The notes under the pieces are model-generated. The model had not been told where the DNA came from and ran no database searches. It was given only the letters and a program-made list of their open reading frames with translations. The position numbers and the translations under genes were made by a program. This document shows, one piece after another, positions 1-15,179 of a stretch of 36,981 nucleotides of DNA. Numbering within the stretch: position 1 is the stretch's first letter; each line of letters opens with the position of its first letter. The DNA is from a virus (Duplodnaviria > Heunggongvirae > Uroviricota > Caudoviricetes): IMG/VR virus record IMGVR_UViG_2703718854_000003. One strand, given 5' to 3'.

Positions 1-1053
1 TTACGGGGTAATGCCAACCGCTGCCGCCACTTTGTCGCCACTTGGCAGCGTTGCCAGAGGATTGAAACGGAGCGCCGTTTCCAGATGATCCGGTGCTAGA
101 TGTGCGTAACGCATAGTCATTTTTATGTCGTGATGTCCGAGGATTTTTTGCAAAGCAAGGATATTTCCACCCGACATCATGAAATGCGCCGCAAACGTAT
201 GGCGCAGAACGTGTGTCAGTTGACCGCGAGGGAGCACGATAGACGTTTTTCCCATCACAGATAAAAATTGAAAATAGCAGTCTGTGAAGAAATTGAACCC
301 ATCAAGCGCCATGATCTCTTCGTAAAGTTCTTTACTGATAGGGATGCTTCTGTTTTTCTTCCCCTTCGTTCTTACAAAGGTAATTCGGTATTTGGTCACC
401 TGTGAGCGGGTAAGATTTACAGCTTCACGCCAGCGTGCGCCTGTGCTTAAGCATATCTTAACTACCAGTGCCAGAATTGGGTCCTGACGTTTGCAATCAG
501 CCAGTAATTCAACAATCTGCTCATGGGTAAGCCATGCCATCTCTTTTTCTGCGATGGTGAATTTTCGCATGTTCTCCAGTGGGTTCGGATACGACCATTC
601 GCCCAGGCGGGATAGTTCGCTAAAAACACTACTAAGATAGCTTTGCTCCAGGTTAATGGTGACCGGGCTTGCTCCTTTCTTCCATTTTTCGCTGAAGTAG
701 ATCTCTCCTGTCAGGCGTTTATCTCGATAGTGGGCAAACATTTTAGAGGTGAGATCGGTTGCAATGGGATTTCCCAGAGCGTCAACCATCAACAGCAATT
801 TGTCATAGACATGCTGCCCAGCTGTCAGAGATTTACCATGTAGTTTGAACCATAGCTCAACCACGTCTTTCAGTGTTCGACGATCCACTGATTCACCCAG
901 CCAGGGTTTTGCTTCGGTTTCTTCCATCGTGTGACGCTCAAAAGCCAGAGCTTCGCCTTTGGTGGCGAATTGTTTACGCACACGACGTCCACTACGTCCG
1001 GCAGGGTAACATTCGCAAAGCCATTTTCCTGTGGTGAGTTTTCGTACTGCCAT
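1..1053 (-). CDS. int: Tyrosine recombinase / phage integrase (complete, 350 aa)
   Basis: C-terminal catalytic region LRHTFAAHFMMSGGNILALQKILGHHDIKMTMRYAHL shows the R..H-x-x-R..Y pattern of tyrosine integrases. Stop codon occupies window positions 1-3; position is next to the immunity region as in P2/186. Confidence 0.9.
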   Translation of the reverse strand: MAVRKLTTGKWLCECYPAGRSGRRVRKQFATKGEALAFERHTMEETEAKPWLGESVDRRTLKDVVELWFKLHGKSLTAGQHVYDKLLLMVDALGNPIATDLTSKMFAHYRDKRLTGEIYFSEKWKKGASPVTINLEQSYLSSVFSELSRLGEWSYPNPLENMRKFTIAEKEMAWLTHEQIVELLADCKRQDPILALVVKICLSTGARWREAVNLTRSQVTKYRITFVRTKGKKNRSIPISKELYEEIMALDGFNFFTDCYFQFLSVMGKTSIVLPRGQLTHVLRHTFAAHFMMSGGNILALQKILGHHDIKMTMRYAHLAPDHLETALRFNPLATLPSGDKVAAAVGITP

Positions 1054-1078
1054 AAAAAAGCCCTCATATCAGAGGGCT
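1053..1078 (-). terminator. Intrinsic terminator-like hairpin on minus strand (stem agccctc/gagggct, then T-run) immediately upstream of the int start codon
   Basis: Read on the minus strand: AGCCCTC-TGATAT-GAGGGCT-TTTTTT-ATG(int). The GAGGG arm doubles as the only SD-like sequence for int. Confidence 0.5.
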
Positions 1079-1139
1079 AAATTTAACTGTATATTTAAAC
1101 AGTTATCAATGTATGTTTAGGGTGAAATAAACATTGGCC

Positions 1140-2129
1140 TCACTCCTGTGCTTTTTCAGCGGTACTTGGCTTTAGTTTTTCTTTGGTTGAATCCCATAAA
1201 GATTGGATTCCCGGAGGGAGTTCTGTTTTGTCAGAAAATGCAGAGTTACCAGACATATTCCAGTCTTTAAAGACTAACACAGCATCTTCTTTTGTTGACG
1301 TGGAACCATAAATTTGCAGGAATACTTGCCCAAACATTAGTGCATGTCTTCTATCTTTTCTCAAAATTGATTCATGGGTATATTTTTTAGAGTTGCCAAG
1401 GCAAATATATGCTAGCCAAGAAAGAATGGAAATACCAATTAAACCACGTGTGAAAAAATAAAATAGCTCAAAGCCTTTAACATTGTTGAAGTCAATTGTG
1501 GCGTAGAGTGTATAAAATGATGCACATACAGCAAGTAGCCCGAAAATGCAGCCAGTAAAAGCCCATACTTGCGACATTCTAATGAAATATAAGTCATCTG
1601 AACTTAGTTCACTTTTAACGCTATCGACATATCCTGGTATTTTCTCATCAATCCTTTCTTGTTGTACTCGGCTTTGTAATTCGCTGTTAGAAGCTTCAAG
1701 TTGCTTTATTCTAGATACGGCTTGCTCAATAATTGCTTCTTTTTCAGAATTTAGTTTTTCTAAATTCTCATTCCGAAGATGTAACGTAGCTTTGGACTCT
1801 TCAGCCTCCAATAAACGTTTGGTATATGATCGCATTATCTCTCGAAGATGTTTTTGTTCTTTTATTAATTCATCTATCTTATTGTTTTCATTAATAAAAA
1901 TATCTCCAGCTTTATCGCTGTAGTTCATTTTTTCTTGCTGGGCTAATTTCCAGTAGTATTCTCTGAATTTATCAAGTTCACCTTTATTTAATAAGTCGAC
2001 TAAGTAGGCGCGTTCATTTTCATTAAATTTATGCAGATTTTCATTTAAAATATTATAAAGATCTTTCCATTCGCAATTAACTTTTTCAACATAATCGTTG
2101 TTTTCATTTTTTTTATTTTCAGAATTCAT
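1140..2129 (-). CDS. Hypothetical protein with N-terminal coiled-coil and C-terminal transmembrane helices; AT-rich cargo gene directly downstream of cI
   Basis: ORF-track frame 1140-2207; start placed at internal ATG (MNSENKK...) preceded by AAAGGAA, 10 nt after the CI stop. Heptad-like charged region (EKLNSEKEAIIEQAVSRIKQLEASNSELQ) followed by hydrophobic segments (WAFTGCIFGLLAVCASFYTLY; LIGISILSWLAYICLG). No family recognised. Confidence 0.6.
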   Translation of the reverse strand: MNSENKKNENNDYVEKVNCEWKDLYNILNENLHKFNENERAYLVDLLNKGELDKFREYYWKLAQQEKMNYSDKAGDIFINENNKIDELIKEQKHLREIMRSYTKRLLEAEESKATLHLRNENLEKLNSEKEAIIEQAVSRIKQLEASNSELQSRVQQERIDEKIPGYVDSVKSELSSDDLYFIRMSQVWAFTGCIFGLLAVCASFYTLYATIDFNNVKGFELFYFFTRGLIGISILSWLAYICLGNSKKYTHESILRKDRRHALMFGQVFLQIYGSTSTKEDAVLVFKDWNMSGNSAFSDKTELPPGIQSLWDSTKEKLKPSTAEKAQE

Positions 2130-2139
2130 GTATGTTCCT

Positions 2140-3078
2140 TTAAATTTCCTTTGAAAAAACGCAACAACATTTTGCGATGGTTGTAATGTCTTCAAGCTTA
2201 CAAACAAAATCAGTTGTATCTGATGTGATTTTTACTTTTCCAACTGGAATTCTTGTTAATTTTCTTAAACTTACTTTACCTTCAATCTCAATCAACCAAC
2301 TACCATCTGAAACATCATCATATTCTGTATCTGCAATAAAGGTTTTTCCTTCTGCGGTAACTCCAATAGGTTTTTTCAATCCGGAAGGTATAAGCGTCTT
2401 GTCAAATGCTAAGTAGCCTTCATCATGTAATTTACCGTCAATGATTGTTTGGTGTTTAAGTTGGGCTACAGAGCTGGAATTATCGATAAATTTGGGGCCA
2501 TTGCCGTTTGTGAGCCAGAGTAATGAAGTTCCTGTTTCAAGAGCGCATTGAATGATCCAATCGCTAGGAAACGTGTCTCGTAAGTACCTGTTTGCTACAG
2601 TGCTTTTTGAAACCTGCAAATGGTTTGCTAGGGCTTGTCGGGTGCTAAAGCCGTAGGCTGCGACTAAGCGATCAATTGCCGCCTTCCCTCCTTTATTAGG
2701 ATTTATGCTGGTCTCGATTGGGAACTTTTGGGCTATTGAGTTAGTTCTATCCAGGTCATCAGATTTGGTATGGGCTAAACGTTCATCATTTAATAAAACT
2801 GAGGATGATTCACAGCTGATTCCCGATGCCAACCAGTCGATAGATGCGCCGGTCTCTATACTGCAAATTATCACCCAGTCAGCAGGAAATGTGTCACGAG
2901 CATACCTGTTAGCCATCGTGCTTTGTGAGATACCCAGATGATTGCAAAATGCTTGCCGCGAAGTAAAACCATACGCAACAAGTATACGCTCAATTACTTT
3001 CTGTCCCCCACGGTTTTGCATTATTGAAGTTTTTAGACTCTCGCTAATATGGCGAAATGTGTTTTTTTGAGTTGACAT
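2140..3078 (-). CDS. cI: CI-type immunity repressor (phage 186 CI family) with tandemly duplicated N-terminal HTH domain
   Basis: Two consecutive copies of the motif (V/A)IxRLVAAYGF(T/S)(S/T)RQA..NHL..S.ST.ANRY.RDTFP.DW(I/V)I.C(S/A).ETG.S..WL (roughly aa 27-84 and 134-191), then a C-terminal domain (SDGSWLIEIEGKVSLRKLTRIPVGKV) resembling 186 CI as I recall it. Divergent from the Apl-like gene. Confidence 0.75.
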   Translation of the reverse strand: MSTQKNTFRHISESLKTSIMQNRGGQKVIERILVAYGFTSRQAFCNHLGISQSTMANRYARDTFPADWVIICSIETGASIDWLASGISCESSSVLLNDERLAHTKSDDLDRTNSIAQKFPIETSINPNKGGKAAIDRLVAAYGFSTRQALANHLQVSKSTVANRYLRDTFPSDWIIQCALETGTSLLWLTNGNGPKFIDNSSSVAQLKHQTIIDGKLHDEGYLAFDKTLIPSGLKKPIGVTAEGKTFIADTEYDDVSDGSWLIEIEGKVSLRKLTRIPVGKVKITSDTTDFVCKLEDITTIAKCCCVFSKEI

Positions 3079-4744: not shown

Positions 4745-4971
4745 TGGCTGATGCAATGGATCTCGTACAGCAGCGCGTTGAAGAAGAACGCCAGCGCCAT
4801 ATCCGTGCTGCCCGTGCCAAAACACCGGGCGTGTCTCGCGTGCTTTGCATTGAGTGTGAAGCGCCAATTCCGCCAGCACGCCGCCGTGCCATTCCGGGTG
4901 TGCAGCTTTGCATTACCTGCCAGGAAATTGCAGAGCTGAAAGGCAAACATTACAACGGAGGTGCTGTATGA
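4744..4971 (+). CDS. TraR/DksA-family C4 zinc-finger protein
   Basis: CxxC...CxxC motif (CIECEAPIPPARRRAIPGVQLCITCQ) typical of phage TraR-like proteins; start overlaps the previous stop. Confidence 0.7.
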   Translation: MADAMDLVQQRVEEERQRHIRAARAKTPGVSRVLCIECEAPIPPARRRAIPGVQLCITCQEIAELKGKHYNGGAV

Positions 4972-5825
4972 GCACCATCCTGAAATGGGCGGGAAATAAA
5001 ACCGCCATTATGTCCGAACTGAAAAAACACCTTCCTGCTGGCCCGCGACTGGTTGAACCTTTCGCGGGTTCCTGTGCTGTGATGATGGAGACGGATTACC
5101 CCAGCTATCTTGTTGCGGATATTAATCCTGATTTAATCAACCTCTATAAAAAGGTTGCTGCTGATTGCGAGGCGTTTATATCTCGTGCCAGAGCTTTATT
5201 TGAGGAAGCAAACAGGGAGTTGGCTTATTACAACATAAGACAGGAGTTTAATTACTCCACTGAAATTACTGATTTCATGAAAGCGGTATATTTCCTGTAT
5301 CTCAATCGTCATGGTTACCGTGGGTTATGTCGTTATAACAAGAGCGGGCATTTCAACATTCCATACGGTAATTATAAAAATCCGTATTTCCCTGAAAAAG
5401 AAATTCGCGCATTTGCAGAGAAAGCCCAGCAAGCAACGTTTATCTGCGCCAGCTTTGATGAAACGCTGGCGATGCTGCAGGTGGGGGATGTGGTGTATTG
5501 CGATCCGCCTTATGACGGTACGTTTTCCGGCTATCACACTAACGGCTTCACTGAAGATGACCAGTATCACCTGGCATCTGTTCTTGAATATCGATCATCA
5601 GAAGGTCATCCAGTCATTGTTTCTAACAGTGACACATCCCTGATCCGTTCGCTGTATCGAAATTTCACTCACCACTACATCAAGGCAAAACGCAGCATCG
5701 GCGTGTCGGCTGGCGAGAGTAAATCTGCAACAGAAATCATCGCTGTTTCTGGGGCGCGCTGCTGGGTGGGATTTGATCCTTCGCGTGGCGTGGATAGTTC
5801 TGCCGTGTACGGAGTGCGTGCATGA
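4968..5825 (+). CDS. dam: DNA adenine methyltransferase (Dam-like, GATC N6-adenine MTase family)
   Basis: N-terminal SAM-binding motif LKWAGNK...PFAGSCAV and catalytic DPPY motif (VVYCDPPY). Start chosen at ATG 4968 overlapping the upstream stop (ATGA), not the ORF-track start 4908. Confidence 0.85.
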
Positions 5826-8236
5826 GCCATGCTGATATGAACAACTGCAGCGGCTTTAACGAGGCCGCCGCAGCATTCTCATGGAACAGCCCGAAAAAGG
5901 CTATTAACCCTTATCTGGACCTGGCGGAAGTTGCGCCGGTTTCTGCGCTTTCAAACCTGATCACTCTGTACGCTGCCGATAACGAGCAGGAACAACTGCG
6001 CCGCGAGGCACTGAGTGATCAGGTTTGGGAGCGTTATTTCTTTAATGAATCCCGTGATCCTGTCCAGCGCGAAATGGAGCAGGATAAGTTCATTAGCCGG
6101 GCAAAGTTGGCGCATGAGCAGCAGCGTTTTAACCCGGACATGGTCATTCTGGCAGACGTTAACGCCCAGCCTTCCCATATCAGCAGGCCGCTGATGCAAC
6201 GTATTGAATACTTCAGCAGCCTTGGCAGGCCAAAGGCTTATTCCCGCTATTTACGTGAGACGATTAAGCCATGTCTGGAACGGCTGGAGCATGTACGCGA
6301 CAGTCAGCTATCCACTTCTTTTCGCTTTATGGCAAGCCATGAAGGGCTGGACGGCCTGCTGATTCTGCCTGAAATGAGTCAGGATCAGGTGAAACGCCTG
6401 TCCACCCTTGTTGCTGCGCATATGAGCATGTGCCTTGATGCAGCTTGTGGCGATTTGTATGCCACCGATGACGTTAAGCCAGAAGAAATCCGCAAGACAT
6501 GGGAAAAGGTGGCAGCAGAAACCCTGCGACTGGATGTCATACCGCCTGCGTTTGAGCAACTCCGCCGGAAAAGAAACCGCCGTAAACCCGTGCCCTATGA
6601 ACTCATTCCGGGTTCGCTGGCGCGTATGTTGTGCGCCGATTGGTGGTACCGGAAATTATGGAAGATGCGTTGCGAATGGCGGGAAGAGCAGTTGCGTGCT
6701 GTTTGCCTGGTCAGCAAAAAAGCATCTCCCTATGTCAGCTATGAAGCCATGATGCATAAACGTGAGCAGCGCCGTAAGTCGCTGGAGTTTTTCCGTTCTC
6801 ATGAACTGGTGAACGAAGACGGCGACACGCTGGACATGGAGGATGTGGTAAACGCCAGCAGCAGCAACCCTGCGCATCGCCGCAATGAGATGATGGCCTG
6901 TGTTAAAGGTCTGGAGCTTATCGCGGAAATGCGCGGTGACTGCGCCGTTTTCTACACCATCACCTGTCCGTCACGTTTCCATTCCACGCTAAATAACGGC
7001 AGGCCCAACCCGACCTGGACAAATACGACGGTAAGACAAAGCAGTGATTATCTGGTCGGCATGTTTGCTGCATTTCGTAAGGCGATGCACAAAGCCGGAT
7101 TGCGCTGGTATGGCGTGCGGGTGGCTGAGCCGCATCATGACGGTACAGTTCACTGGCACCTGTTGTGTTTTATGCGCAAAAAAGATCGCCGCACCATTAC
7201 TGCTTTGTTGCGTAAGTTTGCCATTCGTGAAGACCGCGAGGAGCTGGGTAATAACACGGGACCACGCTTTAAGTCTGAGCTGATAAACCCGCGCAAAGGT
7301 ACGCCAACAAGCTACATCGCGAAATACATCAGTAAGAACATTGACGGGCGTGGTCTGGCTGGCGAGATCAGCAAGGAAACGGGTAAATCCCTGCGTGATA
7401 ACGCTGAATACGTTAATGCCTGGGCGTCTCTGCATCGTGTTCAGCAATTCCGCTTCTTTGGCATTCCGGGGCGTCAGGCTTACCGTGAACTGCGATTGCT
7501 GGCTGGTCAGGCGGCAAGGCAACAGGGGGACAAAAAAGCAGGTGCGCCGGTACTGGATAACCCGCGCCTTGATGCAATCCTGGCTGCTGCTGATGCTGGT
7601 TGTTTTGCCACCTACATCATGAAGCAGGGCGGCGTACTGGTTCCCCGCAAATATCACCTCATCAGAACTGCTTATGAAATCAACGAAGAACCGACCGCAT
7701 ATGGCGATCACGGTATTCGTATTTATGGCATCTGGTCACCCATTGCAGAGGGCAAGATCTGCACTCATGCGGTGAAGTGGAAAATGGTTCGTAAGGCCGT
7801 TGACGTTCAGGAGGCGGCAGCCGACCAGGGCGCTTGCGCCCCTTGGACTCGTGGCAATAACTGTCCCCTTGCTGAAAATTTGTACCAACAAGGGAAAGAC
7901 AAATCAGCTGATGGGGATACCAGAACGGATATCACCCGTATGGATGACAAGGAGTTGCACGATTACCTGCACAGTATGAACAAAAAAGAGCGCCGGGAAC
8001 TGGCTGCAAGGTTACGCCTGGTGAAACCGAAACGGCGTAGAGACTACAAACAGCGAATTACAGACCATCAACGACAGCAGCTCGTCTATGAACTGAAGTC
8101 CAGAGGATTTGATGGCAGCGAGAAAGAGGTCGATTTACTCCTTCGCGGCGGCAGCATTCCGTCAGGAGCAGGCCTGCGTATCTTCTATCGGAACCAGCGT
8201 TTGCAGGAAGATGATAAGTGGCGGAACCTGTATTAA
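5822..8236 (+). CDS. A: Rolling-circle replication initiator endonuclease (P2 gpA family)
   Basis: 804 aa; HUH-type motif [10 protein letters not shown] and active-site tyrosine motif [12 protein letters not shown]; position after the early operon as in P2/186. Confidence 0.85.
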
Positions 8237-9092: not shown

Positions 9093-9308
9093 ATGTCAAG
9101 CATCGCCGCATTTAGCCTGGGTAACCCAGTTGAACGTCTGGCAAGGGTTCTTAAAGAGAACCAGGACAAACTCAATCTTAGTAAAGATGGTTTTGTGTCC
9201 GTAGACTTGTCTAACAAAAGAGCAATGGATGCCATCAAGGCACAGATGGATAAGCTTGAAGGCATCAAAACGAGCACTGTAAAAGAGAAAACTAATAGAA
9301 CCAGATAA
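9093..9308 (+). CDS. Hypothetical small protein (71 aa)
   Basis: Strong SD (AAAGGGGGAG) 3-12 nt upstream of ATG; stop overlaps the start of the next gene (TAATG). Confidence 0.55.
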   Translation: MSSIAAFSLGNPVERLARVLKENQDKLNLSKDGFVSVDLSNKRAMDAIKAQMDKLEGIKTSTVKEKTNRTR

Positions 9309-10150
9309 TGGCAACATTACTTTTAGCAGTGATTTTGGTTAGTGGTTTTATTTATGTAAACCTATCACTTTCAACAAGATACCGATATAAGCGTTCCAAC
9401 GGCTGGGACGCTTATTTTTTTGTGGCTGCCTGGGGTATCGTTTTTTTTCTCCTTGGCGGTTTTTTCACCTTTATTTTGAACGTCAGCGGAGGGTTTCGTT
9501 GGCTGGCTAATGCCTTGAATCTAACACCTGACAGTTTTAATGGCATGTTGTCTTCATCGAAAGACAAACTTCAAAGAATAAATGAAATCAAACAGATAGC
9601 ATGGGTTATGATTTCAATTGTTCTCGCTGCGATTTCAGGTTTTGGAAATAAGTTACGCACATCACGTGGAGATCGTCGCTGGGATGCCTTAGCTAAAGCT
9701 GTGGGTAATAACGCTTTCGAATCATTACTCATGGAAGCGTCCGCAAGACAGTTTCCGATCATAGCAACTCTGTCGTCTCGCAAAATCTATGTTGGTCTTG
9801 TTACTTGTCCGGCGTTAGAAAACGGGCTTTCAGAACACCTTGAACTTCTCCCGATGTTAAGCGGATATCGGGATAAAGATGATCTAACGATTAGTATCAC
9901 GACTAACTATCACCAACATTATCTTGATAGTGGTGTGATAAGTGGAATGTCTCGGCTTAATATCGAAGATTTCCGTGTGCTCATACCAAAAGATGAGGTT
10001 GAAACAATTTCGTTTTTTGATACTGAGACATATAACAAATTTAAAGAAAATGAAGCCAGGGATAGAAAGAACTGTCGAAAGATTGGTAGTAAAAGTGCAT
10101 CTTCGCGCAGCAAGCGTGCAGCAGATGCTGAGTCAAATGATCGTGCATGA
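9308..10150 (+). CDS. Hypothetical membrane protein (three N-terminal TM helices plus C-terminal soluble domain)
   Basis: Hydrophobic segments LLLAVILVSGFIYV, FFVAAWGIVFFLLGGFFTFIL, IAWVMISIVLAAISGF; translationally coupled to the 71-aa ORF; followed by an intrinsic terminator. Confidence 0.6.
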   Translation: MATLLLAVILVSGFIYVNLSLSTRYRYKRSNGWDAYFFVAAWGIVFFLLGGFFTFILNVSGGFRWLANALNLTPDSFNGMLSSSKDKLQRINEIKQIAWVMISIVLAAISGFGNKLRTSRGDRRWDALAKAVGNNAFESLLMEASARQFPIIATLSSRKIYVGLVTCPALENGLSEHLELLPMLSGYRDKDDLTISITTNYHQHYLDSGVISGMSRLNIEDFRVLIPKDEVETISFFDTETYNKFKENEARDRKNCRKIGSKSASSRSKRAADAESNDRA

Positions 10151-10198
10151 CTATGCTGCATGAGATCGCATGATCGTTTGAGGATCGTTTTTGCTAAG

Positions 10199-10222
10199 GC
10201 CCGCCAGAACTGGCGGGCTTTT
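10199..10222 (+). terminator. Rho-independent terminator
   Basis: GC stem GCCCGCC-AGAACT-GGCGGGC followed by TTTT. Confidence 0.75.
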
Positions 10223-10267
10223 GCGTAGATCATGCACCTGCATGAAAACTACTACATAAAGCGGGCA

Positions 10268-10286
10268 GGCGTGGCGGGGATACGAG
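10268..10286. other. Candidate cos (cohesive-end) core of the prophage
   Basis: GGCGTGGCGGGGATACGAG resembles the P2/186 19-nt cohesive-end sequence as I remember it (GGCG-A/T-GGCGGGGAAAGCA-C/T). Lies in the region where P2 has cos, but is separated from Q by the retron-like cassette. Confidence 0.45.
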
Positions 10287-10319
10287 CGCGCGCTGAGCTG
10301 CATTCACTTGAATAATCCG

Positions 10320-10500
10320 TATGTTAGTGCTAGCCTAGCTGTGCCCTTAGCAGGAAAGTACATTCAATATGTTACTTTCTAGTGGTTGGTGTTTAGCCAA
10401 CTCGTATGGATTGCTTGGTATCTCGACACAAGTTAGCCTTGTGTCATTTATAGACACCAGGCTAACTTGTGTCTCGGGAACTCTTGTATGGGCATTAATT
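10320..10500 (+). ncRNA. Candidate retron msr-msd non-coding RNA (boundaries approximate)
   Basis: Structured non-coding stretch immediately upstream of the effector-RT pair. Small stem-loops (AAAGTACA-TTCAATA-TGTTACTTT at 10346-10369; GTTGG-TGTTTAG-CCAAC) are followed by a long hairpin at 10425-10473 (14-bp perfect stem GACACAAGTTAGCC/GGCTAACTTGTGTC enclosing inner stem GTGTC/GACAC), typical of an msd. The flanking a1/a2 inverted repeats could not be identified. Confidence 0.45.
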
Positions 10501-10503
10501 GTT

Positions 10504-11421
10504 ATGTGGTTTAAACATCCTAGATATTTACGAGCAAAAGAAAATTTTATTTCAAGTTTTTTTCCAAGTAACTTGAATTCTTTTAATTATATCCTGCCAA
10601 AAGTATTATTTATTTGTGGAGGAGATGAGACTTATTGTTCAAATAGAGGGATGCTGGAAAAATATATTGCTAAGCATCATAAAGAATTTGTTACTTTTCG
10701 AGCAGAATTAGCATGGGAAGTAATTAGCAATTTAGGAACTCATAGTAATGTGAATGCGCTATCACTTGAAGAATGGCTTGCGGATTTTTCTGATGTGGTA
10801 ATTATTCTCGTAGAGAGTTATGGCACTGTAGCTGAATTGGGCGCATTTTCATTAAGTCCTGTTTTACGTAAAAAACTTCTTCCTATATTAGATAAAAAGT
10901 TTGAAAGTCATAAGTCATTTATCAATACAGGGCCCGTAAAATGGGTTGATAGTGAATCCAAATTTGGCCCTACAATCTATACTGAATTTGAGACAATTTT
11001 AACGTGTATGCCTAAAATAAATGAAAGGCTAAATAGGAAAGTTCAATCAAACATAACTAATACAAATTCAATAGGTGATTACAAATATTCACCAAAAATT
11101 TTTTTATTTTTTGTGCTCGTTGTTATATCTTCTTTAGGTCCAATAACAATTCCTGAGATTATTAATATCACAGGTAGGTTGATAAATTATAAAATTAATA
11201 AAAATATTTCATTTGTTGTTTCTATTGGAGTTGCCCTTGGGATTTTTAAGGAAAGTCGATTTGAGGGCGTGACCCATTATTCATGTGTCGATTATATTAA
11301 ATTTTTTAATCATGAAAAGATGAAAGATTTAGTTGAAAGTATTCAACGAAGTAGAGCTAGATCATTATCCGATTTAATAATGATATCTAAATTCAAAGCA
11401 GAATTAGAAAGGATCATGTGA
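10504..11421 (+). CDS. Candidate retron effector: NDT-like (nucleoside deoxyribosyltransferase-like N-glycosidase) domain plus C-terminal putative DNA-binding domain
   Basis: AT-rich gene directly abutting the RT. Motifs KVLFICGGDE and DVVIILVESYGTVAELGAFS resemble NDT-like folds found in type II retron effectors. ORF-track start 10369 overlaps the hairpin, so start placed at in-frame ATG 10504 (10651 also possible). Domain assignment is from motif memory. Confidence 0.5.
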   Translation: MWFKHPRYLRAKENFISSFFPSNLNSFNYILPKVLFICGGDETYCSNRGMLEKYIAKHHKEFVTFRAELAWEVISNLGTHSNVNALSLEEWLADFSDVVIILVESYGTVAELGAFSLSPVLRKKLLPILDKKFESHKSFINTGPVKWVDSESKFGPTIYTEFETILTCMPKINERLNRKVQSNITNTNSIGDYKYSPKIFLFFVLVVISSLGPITIPEIINITGRLINYKINKNISFVVSIGVALGIFKESRFEGVTHYSCVDYIKFFNHEKMKDLVESIQRSRARSLSDLIMISKFKAELERIM

Positions 11422-11422
11422 T

Positions 11423-12352
11423 ATGTTAATTGAGTATCTAGCTAAAGTTTTACTGTTAGAAGCTGATTTTATATTAAAAGTTGCAAATGATGCTAACTCG
11501 CATTATGGTAAATTTTCTGTACCTAAAAAAGGCGGTGGGACAAGAATCGTCTATCAGCCCTCTAAAGAATTAAAAGTTTTGCAGAGATTACTTCATGATA
11601 ATGTTCTGTCGAAATTGCCGATTCATCCAAATGCTGTAGCATATCAGCAGGGTTCATCAGTGTTCAAACATGCAAGCATTCACAAAGCTAAACGTTTTAT
11701 GCTTAAGATGGACTTTGAAGGTTTTTTTGATTCAATTAAGAAAAGTGATGTTGAGAGATTTATAAACGACAACAAGCATTTCTTCAGTGATGATTGGTCA
11801 AAGGATGATACTGATTTGCTGGTGAAAATAGTATGCTTTAACGGGAGACTGACTATGGGTGCTGTTAGTTCCCCTGTGGTAAGCAATGCTATATGCTATG
11901 AATTAGATCATATATTGAATGAATTTTGTCTTTCAAAAGGTATAACATATACACGCTATGCTGATGATATGTACTTCTCAACAAACGAAGAAAATGTATT
12001 GAAGCAAATACCACCTTTTTTACGCTCGAATTTAAAAAATTTGAAATACCCATCAAAACTATGGATTAATAGAAAAAAGACACTGCATATGTCAAAGAAA
12101 AATAAAATGATGGTTACGGGTGTGACTTTGACAACAGATGGTGGAGTATCCTTAGGGAGAGATAAAAAAAGGATGGTTAAATCGCTTATTTTTAAATGGG
12201 AGGCTCTTGATGAGAAGAAAAGGCTATTTCTTCAAGGATATTTATCGTATTGCAAAAGTGTTGAGCCATTATTTATTAATAGGCTTTGTGCGAAATATTC
12301 ATCAGAGCTGATTGATGAAATCCAGAGATATCAACCTGTAGTATCAGAATAA
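11423..12352 (+). CDS. Retron-type reverse transcriptase
   Basis: RT motifs in order: PKKGGGTRIVYQPS (motif 1/2), LKMDFEGFFDSI (motif A), SSPVVSN (motif B'), YTRYADDMYF (motif C, YADD) and the retron-typical VTG triplet (KMMVTGVTL). About 309 aa, similar in layout to the Ec86 RT. AAAGGA SD; start 2 nt after the effector stop. Confidence 0.8.
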   Translation: MLIEYLAKVLLLEADFILKVANDANSHYGKFSVPKKGGGTRIVYQPSKELKVLQRLLHDNVLSKLPIHPNAVAYQQGSSVFKHASIHKAKRFMLKMDFEGFFDSIKKSDVERFINDNKHFFSDDWSKDDTDLLVKIVCFNGRLTMGAVSSPVVSNAICYELDHILNEFCLSKGITYTRYADDMYFSTNEENVLKQIPPFLRSNLKNLKYPSKLWINRKKTLHMSKKNKMMVTGVTLTTDGGVSLGRDKKRMVKSLIFKWEALDEKKRLFLQGYLSYCKSVEPLFINRLCAKYSSELIDEIQRYQPVVSE

Positions 12353-12358
12353 CGTGTG

Positions 12359-12389
12359 TGCGCATGAAAATTTCCATGCGCATTTTCTT
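12359..12389 (+). terminator. Intrinsic terminator after the retron-like operon (overlaps the 3' end of Q)
   Basis: Stem TGCGCATG/CATGCGCA with 8-nt loop, followed by TTTTCTT on the plus strand. Confidence 0.6.
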
Positions 12390-13413
12390 AAAAACAGTAG
12401 TCATTAAATGAAATAATTTCTTTTCCAGCCCAGTTATTCAGTGATTCAAAATTCTTTTGCAATGGCATTAACTCATTCCGCACAAACACTTTGCTTGCCT
12501 TCTCCACATCCCCAAATCCCCCAACACTATTAGGCATAATCCCCATCATCTGCGGCGGCACGCGGTGTGCCGCCATCATGTCATCGCGACTAACATTTTT
12601 GATATTCAAAAACTCATCCTTCGCCGCGACTTCTGACAATGGGATGATCTGAAGCCCGTCTTTTTTGCCGTTAGGCGAGTACATAAACAGGTTGCGGAAG
12701 TTGCCTGGCCCTTTGGCGCTTTTCATCGCGTTGCGGAGGTTGTTCACATCCTCCTGGTTCTGAGCGGCATCGGTCATGTACATTATGAATCCTGCATGGC
12801 TGCCATTAATATAATATTTGCGTCGGAACAGCGTGGCGGACTCGTTGAGCAGGGCTGACGGAATGGCAGAAAGATAACCGGGCAGGCCGTAGATCTCCTG
12901 GTTGATATCGGGTTCCATCAGATGAAAGATGCTGCCTTTCGTGAACTGATACGGCTGGGTTGTCATGCCGTATTGCACAAACCAGTAGGTATCCAGGTCT
13001 AACCCACGTCGGGTGTATTTTGCCAGAGCAGGCTCAAGGGCGATAACTTCACCGAACCGGTTCGTGCGTTTCTCCAGGTATGCGTTACCAAATACCAGAT
13101 AGTCCTGCACAAAACGTGAAAAAGCCTGCTGGCTGAGAAGCGGGTGAGGGATGTAGGTACTGGTCAGAATGTTGCATTTCACCGCAATTGGTGAACTGTG
13201 ATGCACGGCAGCGCGGAAGGTTCGCGCCAGTCCGTCAAAACTCACTGGCGGCTCATACCAGCGATCTGTCTGTACGCATTCCACATAGTCCAGCAGTTCG
13301 CGGCGGTCCAGAACAGGAACGGGATCGCCAAAGCTGAATGCTTCGGCTGAAGTCTGGCTTTTATGCTGAATCTGGTTCGTCGACACAGCGCGGTTCTTCT
13401 TACTCTTTCCCAT
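12388..13413 (-). CDS. Q: Portal protein (P2 gpQ-like)
   Basis: About 341 aa, N-terminus MGKSKKNR...; lies in the Q-P pair divergent from O-N-M-L as in P2; start chosen at ATG 13413. Confidence 0.8.
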   Translation of the reverse strand: MGKSKKNRAVSTNQIQHKSQTSAEAFSFGDPVPVLDRRELLDYVECVQTDRWYEPPVSFDGLARTFRAAVHHSSPIAVKCNILTSTYIPHPLLSQQAFSRFVQDYLVFGNAYLEKRTNRFGEVIALEPALAKYTRRGLDLDTYWFVQYGMTTQPYQFTKGSIFHLMEPDINQEIYGLPGYLSAIPSALLNESATLFRRKYYINGSHAGFIMYMTDAAQNQEDVNNLRNAMKSAKGPGNFRNLFMYSPNGKKDGLQIIPLSEVAAKDEFLNIKNVSRDDMMAAHRVPPQMMGIMPNSVGGFGDVEKASKVFVRNELMPLQKNFESLNNWAGKEIISFNDYCF

Positions 13414-15179
13414 CAAAAAATCTCCACAATATTGCTGGTATTGGCGGACTCGCCCTGCAGCGGTTCGTTAAACAGTGCGTGCATTGTTGCCCACGCCAGA
13501 TCGGCATGGCTGGCTTCTTCGCTGCGGCTGGCTTCATAGGTCGGGCGGTTGCCGCTGGCGGTGGTGGCGCGACGGATTGCCATAAATGACTGCGCTATGT
13601 CGGTGTGTCCGGCGTCAAACTCCAGACGGCGGTGACTGATAATGTCGTAGGCCTTGAGTACCAGGGCATTTTTAACGTTGGGGTTGTAGACAAACTCCCG
13701 GACGGCAGGAAAAAACGCTTTCACGTTCTCGTAAACCCCGTGACCGACGCCGGTTGAGTCGATACCGATGTATGTCACGTTGTACTGTTCAGTCAGTTTT
13801 TTGATGGCGTCAGCCTGGGCGCGGAAGTCCATCCCGCGCCACTGGTGACGCTCAAGAATGCGGAACTTACCGCCCGGCACGGCTGGCGGTGCCACCACTA
13901 CGCATCCGGCGCTGTCGCCGTTCTGCGTACCTTTTGCCGGGTCATAACCGATCCACACTTCGCGCCAGCCAAACGGGCGCAGCGCCAGTGCATGAAAGTC
14001 GGTCCAGACTTCCCAGCTGTCCACCATGCACGCCTGTAGTTCGCTGAGCGGGAACACGGACGCGAGATCGTCCACAAACTCGCACATCAGCAGGTTCTGG
14101 TATTCGTCCGGGCTGTATTCCATGCGCAACTGGTCAAGGTCGAACAGGTTACAGCCGCCGCGCACCGCATCTTCGACGGTGACTATCTGGCGGTATTGCC
14201 CGTCAGCGCACAGCAGGCCGGGGGCCAGATTGTTGTGGGACAGGTCGATGTCCACCTTGTCGGCTTTGTTGCGTCCGCGGTTGAACAGCGCACCGGACCA
14301 GAACGGATAAGCACTGTGGGTCAGGCTGGATGGTGTGGAAAAATAGGTCTGCCGCCATTTCTTGTGAATAGCCATACCGGAAGCCACTTTGCGTAGCTCC
14401 TGAAATTTCGGTATCCAGAAATATTCATCCAGATACAGGTTGCCGTGATAACTCTGGGCCGTGCGGGCATTGGTGCCGAGGAAGTAAAGCGTGGCCCCGT
14501 TAGGAAGCACCATCGGATCGCCTTTCAGTTCCACATCCACTTCTTTGGCGAAGTCGATGATGTACTGCTTAAAGACGTGGGCCTGTGCCTTACTGGCGGA
14601 AAGGAAAATCTGGTTACGTCCGGTAAGCAGGGCGTCAATCAGGGCTTCACGGGCAAAGTAAAAGGTCGCGCCGATCTGGCGTGACTTCAGCAGGTTGCGG
14701 ATGCGGTTGGTTTTTCCGGCTTCCCACCAGTGGCGCTGGTAGTTGAACATGGAGGAATGGAAGATTTTTTCCAGCTTCTCAATCTGTTCATCGGTGAAGA
14801 CATTCTTTTCCGGCTGACGGCGCGGGCCTTTGTTGCGGTTGGCGACGTTAGGGTTTAAGTCAGCTTCGTTGCCGCCATTGTTAAACTTGCCGATCCGCGC
14901 GTGGCGCTCAGACTGGCGCGCCAGCAGGTCAATCTCTTTGAAATCTTTCCCTTCTTTGTGCTCCTTCATAATGAGCTGGCAGTAGCGTGCGGCGGTGGTG
15001 AGCTGCATCTGATCCAGCGGCCCATAGTCACCCCACTTGTCGCGTTTTTTCCAGCTGTGAACGGTTGCAACTTTCTCGCCCAGCATTTCAGCAATGCGGG
15101 CGACGCGGTATCCCTGAAAGTACAGCAGCATGGCCTGCCGACGGGGATCGAGATCTGCGGGTGTCAGTGTGGTGTTCAT
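13413..15179 (-). CDS. P: Terminase large (ATPase) subunit (P2 gpP-like)
   Basis: 588 aa; synteny with Q and divergent from the capsid operon. Confidence 0.8.
   Translation of the reverse strand: MNTTLTPADLDPRRQAMLLYFQGYRVARIAEMLGEKVATVHSWKKRDKWGDYGPLDQMQLTTAARYCQLIMKEHKEGKDFKEIDLLARQSERHARIGKFNNGGNEADLNPNVANRNKGPRRQPEKNVFTDEQIEKLEKIFHSSMFNYQRHWWEAGKTNRIRNLLKSRQIGATFYFAREALIDALLTGRNQIFLSASKAQAHVFKQYIIDFAKEVDVELKGDPMVLPNGATLYFLGTNARTAQSYHGNLYLDEYFWIPKFQELRKVASGMAIHKKWRQTYFSTPSSLTHSAYPFWSGALFNRGRNKADKVDIDLSHNNLAPGLLCADGQYRQIVTVEDAVRGGCNLFDLDQLRMEYSPDEYQNLLMCEFVDDLASVFPLSELQACMVDSWEVWTDFHALALRPFGWREVWIGYDPAKGTQNGDSAGCVVVAPPAVPGGKFRILERHQWRGMDFRAQADAIKKLTEQYNVTYIGIDSTGVGHGVYENVKAFFPAVREFVYNPNVKNALVLKAYDIISHRRLEFDAGHTDIAQSFMAIRRATTASGNRPTYEASRSEEASHADLAWATMHALFNEPLQGESANTSNIVEIF

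Follow-up and report, generated by a model that had tools for sequence, protein, structure and literature searches.

What occupies the AT-rich block beside the cos site of a P2/186-like prophage, and how is it related to the retrons known from the same place in other prophages? The DNA analyzed here (hereafter the window) is a stretch of 36,981 nucleotides from a virus of the Caudoviricetes, IMG/VR record IMGVR_UViG_2703718854_000003. A first-pass annotation, made by a model from the letters alone, had marked in it a retron-like cassette, consisting of a structured non-coding RNA (ncRNA), an NDT-like effector gene and a retron reverse transcriptase (RT). The cassette spans window positions 10294-12387, is AT-rich and 2.1 kb long, and lies between cos (10268-10286) of the prophage and the point where the portal gene Q ends. 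Very probably it is a three-part retron of type II-A (II-A1-like, "St85 family"), which a P2/186-like prophage carries as cargo in its cos-proximal hotspot. Retrons of this well-known kind serve bacteria in aborting infections by phages.

The reverse transcriptase is of the retron type

Two tandem open reading frames (ORFs) on the plus strand occupy the low-GC block (10369/10504-11421 and 11423-12352). The product of the second matches Pfam RVT_1 (2.5e-23), and its 25 top PADLOC matches are all retron RT models. The best of them is an RT_II-A model (4.4e-105, 349 bits), followed by RT_I-A (1.7e-83, 279 bits); the other two RT_II-A models reach 227 and 190 bits. The NCBIfam model retron_St85_RT (NF038233) gives 326.2 bits against a curated cut-off of 235, whereas the models of non-retron RTs fail by a wide distance (group II intron, 39 bits against a cut-off of 300; Drt2, 28 against 390; Drt4, 16 against 450). 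All 14 PDB sequence matches stronger than E = 1e-6 are retron RTs. The YADD box lies at residues 179-182 (11957-11968) and the VTG signature at residues 231-233 (12113-12121), and an NAxxH motif is present as HASIH at residues 83-87, its first position being N or H among homologues. These three motifs are conserved across 28 RT homologues. The first-pass annotation, which had recognized a retron RT by its VTG and YADD motifs, was thus right on both motifs, and the PADLOC, NCBIfam and PDB matches group the protein with retron RTs and not with those of group II introns, diversity-generating retroelements or Abi systems. Compared with an Enterobacter copy (dS of about 1), the RT gene has a ratio of nonsynonymous to synonymous substitution (dN/dS) of 0.07.

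In pairwise comparison, the clade-1 type I-A RTs Ec78 and Ec83 match the RT better (E from 1e-50 to 1e-44) than that of Ec86 does (4e-32). Because of this proximity, and because the best RT_II-A model stands well above the other two with RT_I-A in second place, a II-A1-like, clade 1 placement fits the sequence comparisons; it is a placement by profile scores and pairwise matches. In a published census, Sen2 and Ec73 are clade 1, type II-A1, and Ec86 is clade 9, type II-A3 (PMC10849725, supplement). The closest solved RT by sequence is PDB 22et/22eu (E 1.5e-54), a 310-residue protein titled just "Retron", which resembles the type I-A Ec78 RT.

A covarying msr-msd RNA precedes the effector gene

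Folding of 10290-10520 gives a minimum free energy with z = -5.1 relative to shuffled sequences, and the region contains a 21-nt inverted repeat. We gathered homologous loci through relatives of the RT (Enterobacter, a P2-like prophage, P4-like satellites, Pectobacterium, Serratia, Yersinia, Lelliottia and E. kobei) and aligned the regions upstream of their effector genes, using 11 loci in the alignment and nine in RNAalifold. An Aliivibrio locus, whose longer msd was misaligned by MAFFT, was excluded from the covariation alignment and is recovered by the covariance model described below. The conserved elements are, in order, an extended -10 promoter, the string CCCTTAG, a hairpin GGTTGGTG...AGCCnAC, a long variable hairpin, GTAAGGG and the effector start ATGTGGTTTAAACATCC. 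CCCTTAG is invariant or nearly so across the aligned loci. At the putative promoter, TGnTAnnnT is invariant in the 11 loci and CTTGAA is the consensus at -35, so placed that transcription is predicted to start at about 10341-10343.

The RNAalifold consensus has the anatomy of a retron RNA: a1 and a2 pair to close the molecule, and within it lie two msr hairpins and the msd, whose stem has 16-18 pairs. It contains 44 pairs, 15 of which show compensatory changes, with 94% of cells paired. None of 500 shuffles attains the observed pairing and covariation values, and sliding the partners drops pairing to 35-47%. A covariance model built from the nine sequences scores 140.8 bits on the window (10338-10495, plus strand) and finds full-length matches in 19 other loci, each of them preceding the RT gene on the strand of that gene. 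These matches include the experimentally established msr-msd of Ec86 at its known position (locus L003, 4002-4167), the Ec86 sequence having been checked at 100% identity in E. coli B genomes. In 22 covariance-model matches 41 of the 44 pairs covary, in an alignment that is itself fitted to the model. Independent targets of the model were provided by distant loci (27-42% identity), found among the matches listed by a scan with the peptide Y[TS]RYADD; this peptide is generic to RTs, and among the matches listed there were no close relatives and no Salmonella. Because of the covariation and the recovery of the Ec86 msr-msd, the structured msr-msd RNA is well supported, and the structured stretch with an msd-like hairpin reported in the first pass is confirmed as a retron RNA. 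An Rfam scan of 9800-12700 at E <= 1 returned no family for the msr-msd, with two chance miRNA-like matches only, and the ncRNA is annotated in none of the E. coli and Klebsiella phage records of the retron.

To place the ends of the msd, we aligned it with the RT-DNA sequenced for a Colwellia psychrerythraea retron (census "Terminal 257"). The predicted multicopy single-stranded DNA (msDNA) is the reverse complement of the msd, about 74 nt long, CAAGAGTTCCCGAGACACAAGTTAGCCTGGTGTCTATAAATGACACAAGGCTAACTTGTGTCGAGATACCAAGC, and is predicted to fold into a 20-bp stem (-21.5 kcal/mol, z = -8.4). The msd is almost unchanged between the window and the Enterobacter copies.

The effector resembles that of Ec86

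The product of the first ORF matches the PADLOC model NDT_II-A (7.2e-54) and the NCBIfam model STM3845_fam (NF038232; 178.7 bits against a curated cut-off of 100). Our Pfam scan gave no match on this protein, and a newer family, PF28093 "STM3845", appears in precomputed annotations only. Its PDB sequence matches are chains of the Ec86 effector only (1.5e-17), over the N-terminal domain. An AlphaFold2 model built on 37 homologues (mean predicted local distance difference test score (pLDDT) 85, predicted template modeling score (pTM) 0.85) shows an NDT-like fold followed by a winged-helix-like domain, in line with the NDT-like assignment of the first pass. The best Foldseek matches of the model are the Ec86/Eco1 effector structures 7xjg_J, 8qbl_E and 8qbk_E, over the full length (E 5e-11 to 1e-10, TM-score 0.51-0.57), and the next ones, over the N-terminal domain, are DNPH1, the CMP N-glycosidase BcmB and nucleoside 2'-deoxyribosyltransferases. 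The modeled C-terminal domain runs helix-helix-helix-strand-strand and has a weak MarR match. The predicted catalytic glutamate E111 (codon 10834-10836, in VAELGAF) is invariant in the 37 homologues and aligns with E106 of Eco1, the residue altered in the E106A structure 8qbl. The effector gene has a dN/dS of 0.04 relative to the Enterobacter copy, again at dS of about 1.

The start codon at 10504 (MWFKHP), also chosen in the first pass, is conserved in all 11 aligned loci. The RefSeq/PGAP annotation of the identical E. coli copy and of Klebsiella phage records begins at ATG 10369 and gives a 350-residue protein. We reject this start because its reading frame crosses the msr-msd and because MWFKHP is conserved in all the loci. 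In Lelliottia (L092, 3293-3511) the effector is cut to a 72-residue remnant and the ncRNA and RT are kept, at a site syntenic with that of E. kobei (L093; glycosyl hydrolase 31, a major facilitator superfamily transporter, the retron and a SymE toxin). This locus looks like a natural case in which the toxin was lost and the RT kept.

The cassette fills a variable slot between cos and gene Q

The window element carries an integrase, CI, CII, a D12 adenine methylase, gpA, a DinI-like protein, cos, Q, P, O and N, and is a P2/186-like prophage. Its GC content is 0.40-0.46 to the left of the cassette, 0.27-0.35 over 10400-12400, in agreement with the AT-rich gene noticed in the first pass, and 0.47-0.62 to the right over Q and P (portal, terminase). 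The 19-mer GGCGTGGCGGGGATACGAG at 10268-10286 recurs without a difference in Salmonella phage SEN8, where it makes up positions 1-19 and carries the annotation "putative cos site"; the last base of the SEN8 record is the equivalent of window 10267. For these two reasons we take 10268-10286 to be a genuine P2/186-type cos. The cos-like motif of the first-pass annotation is therefore the cos site proper, and its start for the cassette, 10268, is the first base of cos. The same cos sequence precedes the Ec86 retron (L003) and the sister cassette of a P2-like prophage (L086). Homology of the backbone extends past cos to 10293 and then ends in the Ec86 prophage, in L086 and in SEN8, the cargo beyond being different in each; 1279 E. 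coli records match the window up to about 10298. At the other end, the terminator of the retron operon (hairpin 12358-12383 with a T-run) abuts the stop codon (12388) of the minus-strand portal gene, as described in the first pass, and other cassettes in the cos-Q slot bring their own, different terminators.

As cargo beyond 10293, E. coli B has the Ec86 retron, the P2-like prophage L086 a sister retron of 62% identity, and SEN8 a hypothetical gene with an HNH endonuclease. In the prophage of K. pneumoniae Kp52145, whose gene sizes left of cos otherwise match the window, the cos-Q slot holds a SEFIR-domain gene. Variable, cos-adjacent cargo flanked by gpA and gpQ is what defines the cos-proximal hotspot of P2-like phages, and the window shows all of it; this gpA-gpQ region is a defence hotspot with retrons among many systems (Rousset et al. 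2022, PMC9122126). The first-pass annotation had placed the cassette where Ec67 and Ec86 lie. For Ec86 we see this directly in E. coli BLR(DE3), from the same cos to Q; for Ec67 it comes from the literature, the position of both retrons being attributed to Dodd & Egan 1996 as cited in PMC7826664. The relatives of the cassette occupy the P2 slot (L086), sites beside the primase gene of P4-like satellites (L087, L089 and L091) and small chromosomal islets. The coordinates of all features are collected in Table 1.

Table 1. Features of the retron cassette and its flanks, in window coordinates
Feature	Position	Strand	Basis and remarks
cos	10268..10286	.	P2/186-type 19-mer; prophage backbone, outside the retron
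Putative retron promoter	10308..10336	+	-35 TTGAAT 10308-10313, 17-nt spacer, extended -10 TGcTAGCCT 10328-10336
Retron ncRNA (msr-msd)	10338..10495	+	Folding, covariation, covariance model
a1	10341-10349	+	GTGCCCTTA
Branching G	10350	+	Directly 3' of a1, in CCCTTAG
msr hairpin 1	10353-10361/10372-10380	+	Consensus fold
msr hairpin 2	10384-10390/10396-10402	+	Consensus fold
Predicted msd (msDNA template)	10413..10486	-	Alignment with the sequenced Colwellia psychrerythraea RT-DNA
msd hairpin	10425-10445/10453-10473	+	Consensus fold
a2	10487-10495	+	TATGGGCAT
Effector/toxin, 305 aa (predicted)	10504..11421	+	NDT-like N-glycosidase domain N-terminal, winged-helix-like domain C-terminal (about residues 197-260)
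Retron RT, 309 aa	11423..12352	+	Pfam, PADLOC, NCBIfam, motifs; begins 1 nt past the effector stop
Terminator	12358..12393	+	Hairpin GTGCGCATG...CATGCGCAT followed by TTTTCTT; terminator scan, ORF list
Portal gene Q	12388-13416	-	Pfam Phage_portal; terminase gene next
gpA replication endonuclease	5822-8236		ORF list, annotation; left boundary of the gpA-gpQ hotspot

Over window 10150-12400, the chromosome of E. coli MS14386 matches at 100% and eight further E. coli records at 98.5-99.7% identity, and the region is carried by eight of 5426 complete genomes. It is also found at 98% identity in Klebsiella phage 4LV2017 and in a series of Klebsiella Kp48xx phages, with 13 phage records at 98-100%. 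With MS14386 the complete match is confined to the retron region. The window's left end (1-3078, minus strand) is unlike that prophage, which has a DUF4041 gene there. This end holds an integrase (1-1053), a 355-residue ORF (1140-2207; phrog_2628, weak DUF2207_C) and a CI repressor ORF (2140-3078). The interval between the integrase and CI looks like another variable slot, and the prophage is mosaic. On the other side of cos, within the same gpA-gpQ hotspot, lie two co-oriented plus-strand genes, 9093-9308 (71 residues, phrog_9843) and 9308-10150 (280 residues, phrog_3630), followed by a GC-rich terminator-like hairpin at 10193-10224. Neither protein has a PADLOC, Pfam or NCBIfam match. Genes matching the pair in size and position occur in the Kp52145 prophage of K. 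pneumoniae, and the pair at 9093-10150 may be a second cargo module.

A distinct lineage within a known family

Taken on the general features of retrons, the cassette has an RT with YADD, VTG and NAxxH-type motifs and, adjacent to it and on the same strand, an ncRNA with a1/a2, a branching G and msr and msd hairpins. The NDT_II-A match, the Eco1-like effector fold and the conserved predicted catalytic glutamate make it a type II-A member, and both proteins score above the curated cut-offs of the NCBIfam "retron St85 family". In RefSeq, the identical E. coli copy has both of its genes labelled "retron St85 family"; in the Klebsiella phage 4LV2017 record the label is on the effector only. The first-pass annotation had thought of an uncharacterised retron variant. 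What stands of this is that the cassette is, by sequence comparison, a distinct and apparently uncharacterised lineage inside a well-defined family; what does not stand is that it went unrecognized, as it is a regular type II-A/St85-family member already so annotated in RefSeq. It is, in other words, an ordinary, complete and intact, apparently functional type II-A retron in the expected prophage hotspot, of a kind that the databases already recognize.

Retron-Sen2 (St85, Salmonella Typhimurium; type II-A1, RT clade 1) has the same order of msr-msd, NDT-like effector (RcaT) and RT, the two proteins of the cassette fit the NCBIfam St85-family models, and the Sen2 ncRNA has the same layout of a1, branching G, two msr hairpins, long msd hairpin and a2. 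For comparison we used a Sen2-like locus of E. coli (L094; effector of 320 and RT of 311 residues), which was found with the Sen2 ncRNA as printed in the census (98% identical). The window RT is 35% identical to that of this locus, and the effector 29% over the N-terminal 148 residues. The ncRNA sequences differ (ACTCTTTAG... against GCCCTTAG...), and the Sen2 msDNA has a GATC, its Dam trigger, whereas the msd here has none. The surroundings differ too: Sen2 is reported as chromosomal and not in a P2 prophage, and L094 adjoins mnmE beside a frameshifted integrase. The cassette is therefore not Retron-Sen2, the RT and effector identities of 35% and 29% being too low. Nor is it Retron-Eco9, whose msr is reportedly 85% identical to that of Sen2, whereas the msr here differs.

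Retron-Eco1 (Ec86, E. coli B; II-A3, clade 9) occupies the same slot, from the same cos to gene Q, in a P2/186-like prophage. Its effector has the same architecture, is the best structural match and carries the equivalent catalytic glutamate, and the branch motif CCCTTAGC (CCCTTAG) is common to both retrons. The genes, however, are arranged as effector, ncRNA and RT in Ec86 and as ncRNA, effector and RT here, and the effectors are 41% identical only within the N-terminal 116 residues. The RTs are 31% identical, so that the divergence from Ec86 noted in the first pass is real. On RT identity and gene order we reject identity with Retron-Eco1 and subtype II-A3.

The closest experimentally handled relative that we found is the II-A1 retron of the marine Colwellia psychrerythraea (PMC10849725). 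Its RNA has the msr hairpin-2 motif GGTTGGTGTATAGCCGAC and the CCTTAG/TAAGG core of a1/a2 in common with the window; its msd is different and longer, with an RT-DNA of 97 nt. A St85-family effector of Colwellia psychrerythraea is 50% identical to the window effector. In E. coli this retron yields 0.32 times as much RT-DNA as Eco1, and it was assayed for DNA production and editing only (PMC10849725). Retron-Eco3 (Ec73) and other hotspot retrons (PMC9122126) are, as here, cos-adjacent defence cargo in P2-like phages and P4-like satellites, and relatives of the present retron also adjoin a P4-type primase gene. The census entries Terminal 288 (E. coli) and Terminal 290 (K. pneumoniae) were rejected as this retron, since both have a clearly different, Ec73-like ncRNA.

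A proposed mechanism

We propose that a single transcript would start near 10341, from the extended -10 promoter, and end at the terminator 12358-12393. Its first ~155 nt would fold into the msr-msd, a fold backed by covariation, in which pairing of a1 with a2 would put G10350 at the end of the stem. The RT would recognize the msr hairpins, prime on the 2'-OH of G10350 and copy the template from 10486 back to about 10413. From what is known of the family and from the sequenced RT-DNA of the homologue, the product would be a branched RNA-DNA molecule with ~74 nt of DNA in the form of a 20-bp hairpin. By analogy with Sen2/Eco9 and Eco1, the complex of RT and msDNA would bind the effector and keep it inactive, as an antitoxin does a toxin. 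Such sequestration has been demonstrated in Sen2/Eco9 and, by structures, in Eco1; Sen2 and Eco9 are tripartite toxin-antitoxin systems (10.1101/2020.06.22.160168). The effector would then be freed when some product of a phage modified or destroyed the msDNA; of the candidates, the most specific is a Dcm-type cytosine methylase of a phage, with CCTGG in the stem as its target. Degradation of msDNA by RecE is another known release route for retron effectors. Once freed, the N-glycosidase with its predicted catalytic E111 would attack NAD+ or nucleotides, growth would stop and the infection would abort, so that the lysogen population and the prophage would be protected. This last step is drawn by analogy with Eco1, for which depletion of adenine derivatives is reported (10.1101/2023.08.16.553469) and NAD+ hydrolysis is named in the title of Carabias et al. 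2024; the titles of the Eco1 filament entries in the PDB include an ADP-ribosylated effector and an E106A mutant.

The candidate trigger comes from a motif in the msd stem. The sole CCWGG of the 2.1-kb cassette is the CCAGG at 10457-10461, within the msd stem, and the opposite arm reads CCTTG (10438-10442). In the predicted msDNA stem CCTGG is accordingly paired with CAAGG, with one G.A mismatch. The Ec86 msd (L003 4001-4170) has the same imperfect Dcm arrangement, CCTTG/CCAGG, and in Ec86 the Dcm methylation of CCTGG in the msDNA triggers the retron, CCTGG being required and the effector forming filaments (10.1101/2023.08.16.553469). Because the CCTGG/CAAGG stem matches the design of Ec86, with its required CCTGG, our analysis suggests phage cytosine methylases as a candidate trigger here.

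Six ncRNAs of the sister clade have GATC facing GAGC at the equivalent position of the stem; the window msd has no GATC. In Sen2, Dam methylation of the msDNA GATC is the trigger (10.1101/2020.06.22.160242). A speculative idea, which we hold to be rather unlikely, is that the msDNA stem presents a deliberately imperfect, one-strand methylation motif as a phage sensor, and that this motif has been swapped between lineages, as a Dcm half-site (CCTGG/CAAGG) in one and a Dam half-site (GATC/GCTC) in the other. The prophage itself encodes a D12-class N6-adenine DNA methyltransferase (4908-5825, plus strand; Pfam MethyltransfD12, 8.9e-77). If the idea were true, the motif swap would let a prophage with its own Dam-type methylase carry the retron untriggered and yet sense phages that bring a cytosine methylase.

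Points against the proposal and other explanations

Several points weigh against the account given so far. The argument from the Dcm site was made post hoc; most E. coli hosts possess a Dcm of their own, and the position of the site differs, being close to the loop in the window msd and close to the base of the stem in Ec86. The retron is distant from every characterized member (RT, 35% and 31% identity to the Sen2-like and Ec86 RTs; effector, 29% and 41%, in the N-terminal domain only), and because of this distance its trigger and enzymatic substrate may differ from those of characterized retrons. The msDNA production, toxicity and defence proposed for it are predictions from sequence, and neither its sequence strings nor its RefSeq/GenBank accessions were found in the papers and the census supplement that we searched. 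Because the case for the promoter at 10308-10336 is conservation, and a generic promoter scan missed the site, we call it putative. The a1/a2 stem is short in this clade, 9 bp with one T.T mismatch.

This short, mismatched stem raises the question of whether the retron is a decaying and non-functional remnant, in which msDNA synthesis was lost through the weakened a1/a2 pairing or the effector became inactive. Decay does occur in the family, as the Lelliottia sister locus has lost most of its effector gene. For the window we regard it as highly improbable. Neither ORF is broken, both are under strong purifying selection (dN/dS 0.04-0.07), the catalytic motifs are intact, and conservation and covariation are seen in the ncRNA. 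E. coli, Klebsiella phage and Enterobacter copies moreover retain one and the same a2 variant, and copies at 98-100% identity persist in the eight E. coli genomes and 13 phage records. An RT of some other class (group II intron, diversity-generating retroelement, Abi/UG or defence-associated RT), next to a hairpin that has nothing to do with it and is, for example, part of a phage terminator or of cos, deserves practically no credence. It could appeal to the generic RVT_1 domain and to nothing further, and it is already refuted by the profile scores, the group II intron, Drt2 and Drt4 models lying far below their cut-offs and the retron_St85_RT model well above (326 against 235 bits). The PDB matches, all of them retron RTs, point the same way, and an unrelated hairpin is at odds with a covariance model that also recovers the msr-msd of Ec86.

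An explanation closer to the proposed one is that the cassette is mainly an addiction (toxin-antitoxin) module that stabilizes the prophage or its cargo, with no meaningful anti-phage role. In the tripartite systems of Sen2 and Eco9, loss of the RT or of the msDNA frees the toxin (10.1101/2020.06.22.160168), and relatives of the cassette ride on P2-like prophages, P4-like satellites and chromosomal islets, both of which would suit such a module. The P2 cos-proximal hotspot, however, is enriched in validated defence systems (PMC9122126), and the related type II-A retrons Eco1 and Sen2 respond to phage proteins. We therefore think a purely addictive role improbable, though somewhat less so than decay, and addiction and defence are not mutually exclusive. 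A type II-A retron carried as hotspot cargo remains the reading that we prefer.

Implications

For the field as a whole the change is small: the P2 cos-proximal defence hotspot gains one more type II-A retron, and one already recognized by automated annotation. The practical gain is a precise map of a previously un-annotated msr-msd RNA and the correction of an over-extended effector coding sequence in RefSeq. The retron is compact (2.1 kb), is shared by E. coli and Klebsiella, has a short predicted msDNA and carries an Ec86-type Dcm motif despite RT and effector identities of about 30-40%. It would thus be a convenient second system for asking whether the sensing of msDNA methylation is general among retrons with NDT effectors.

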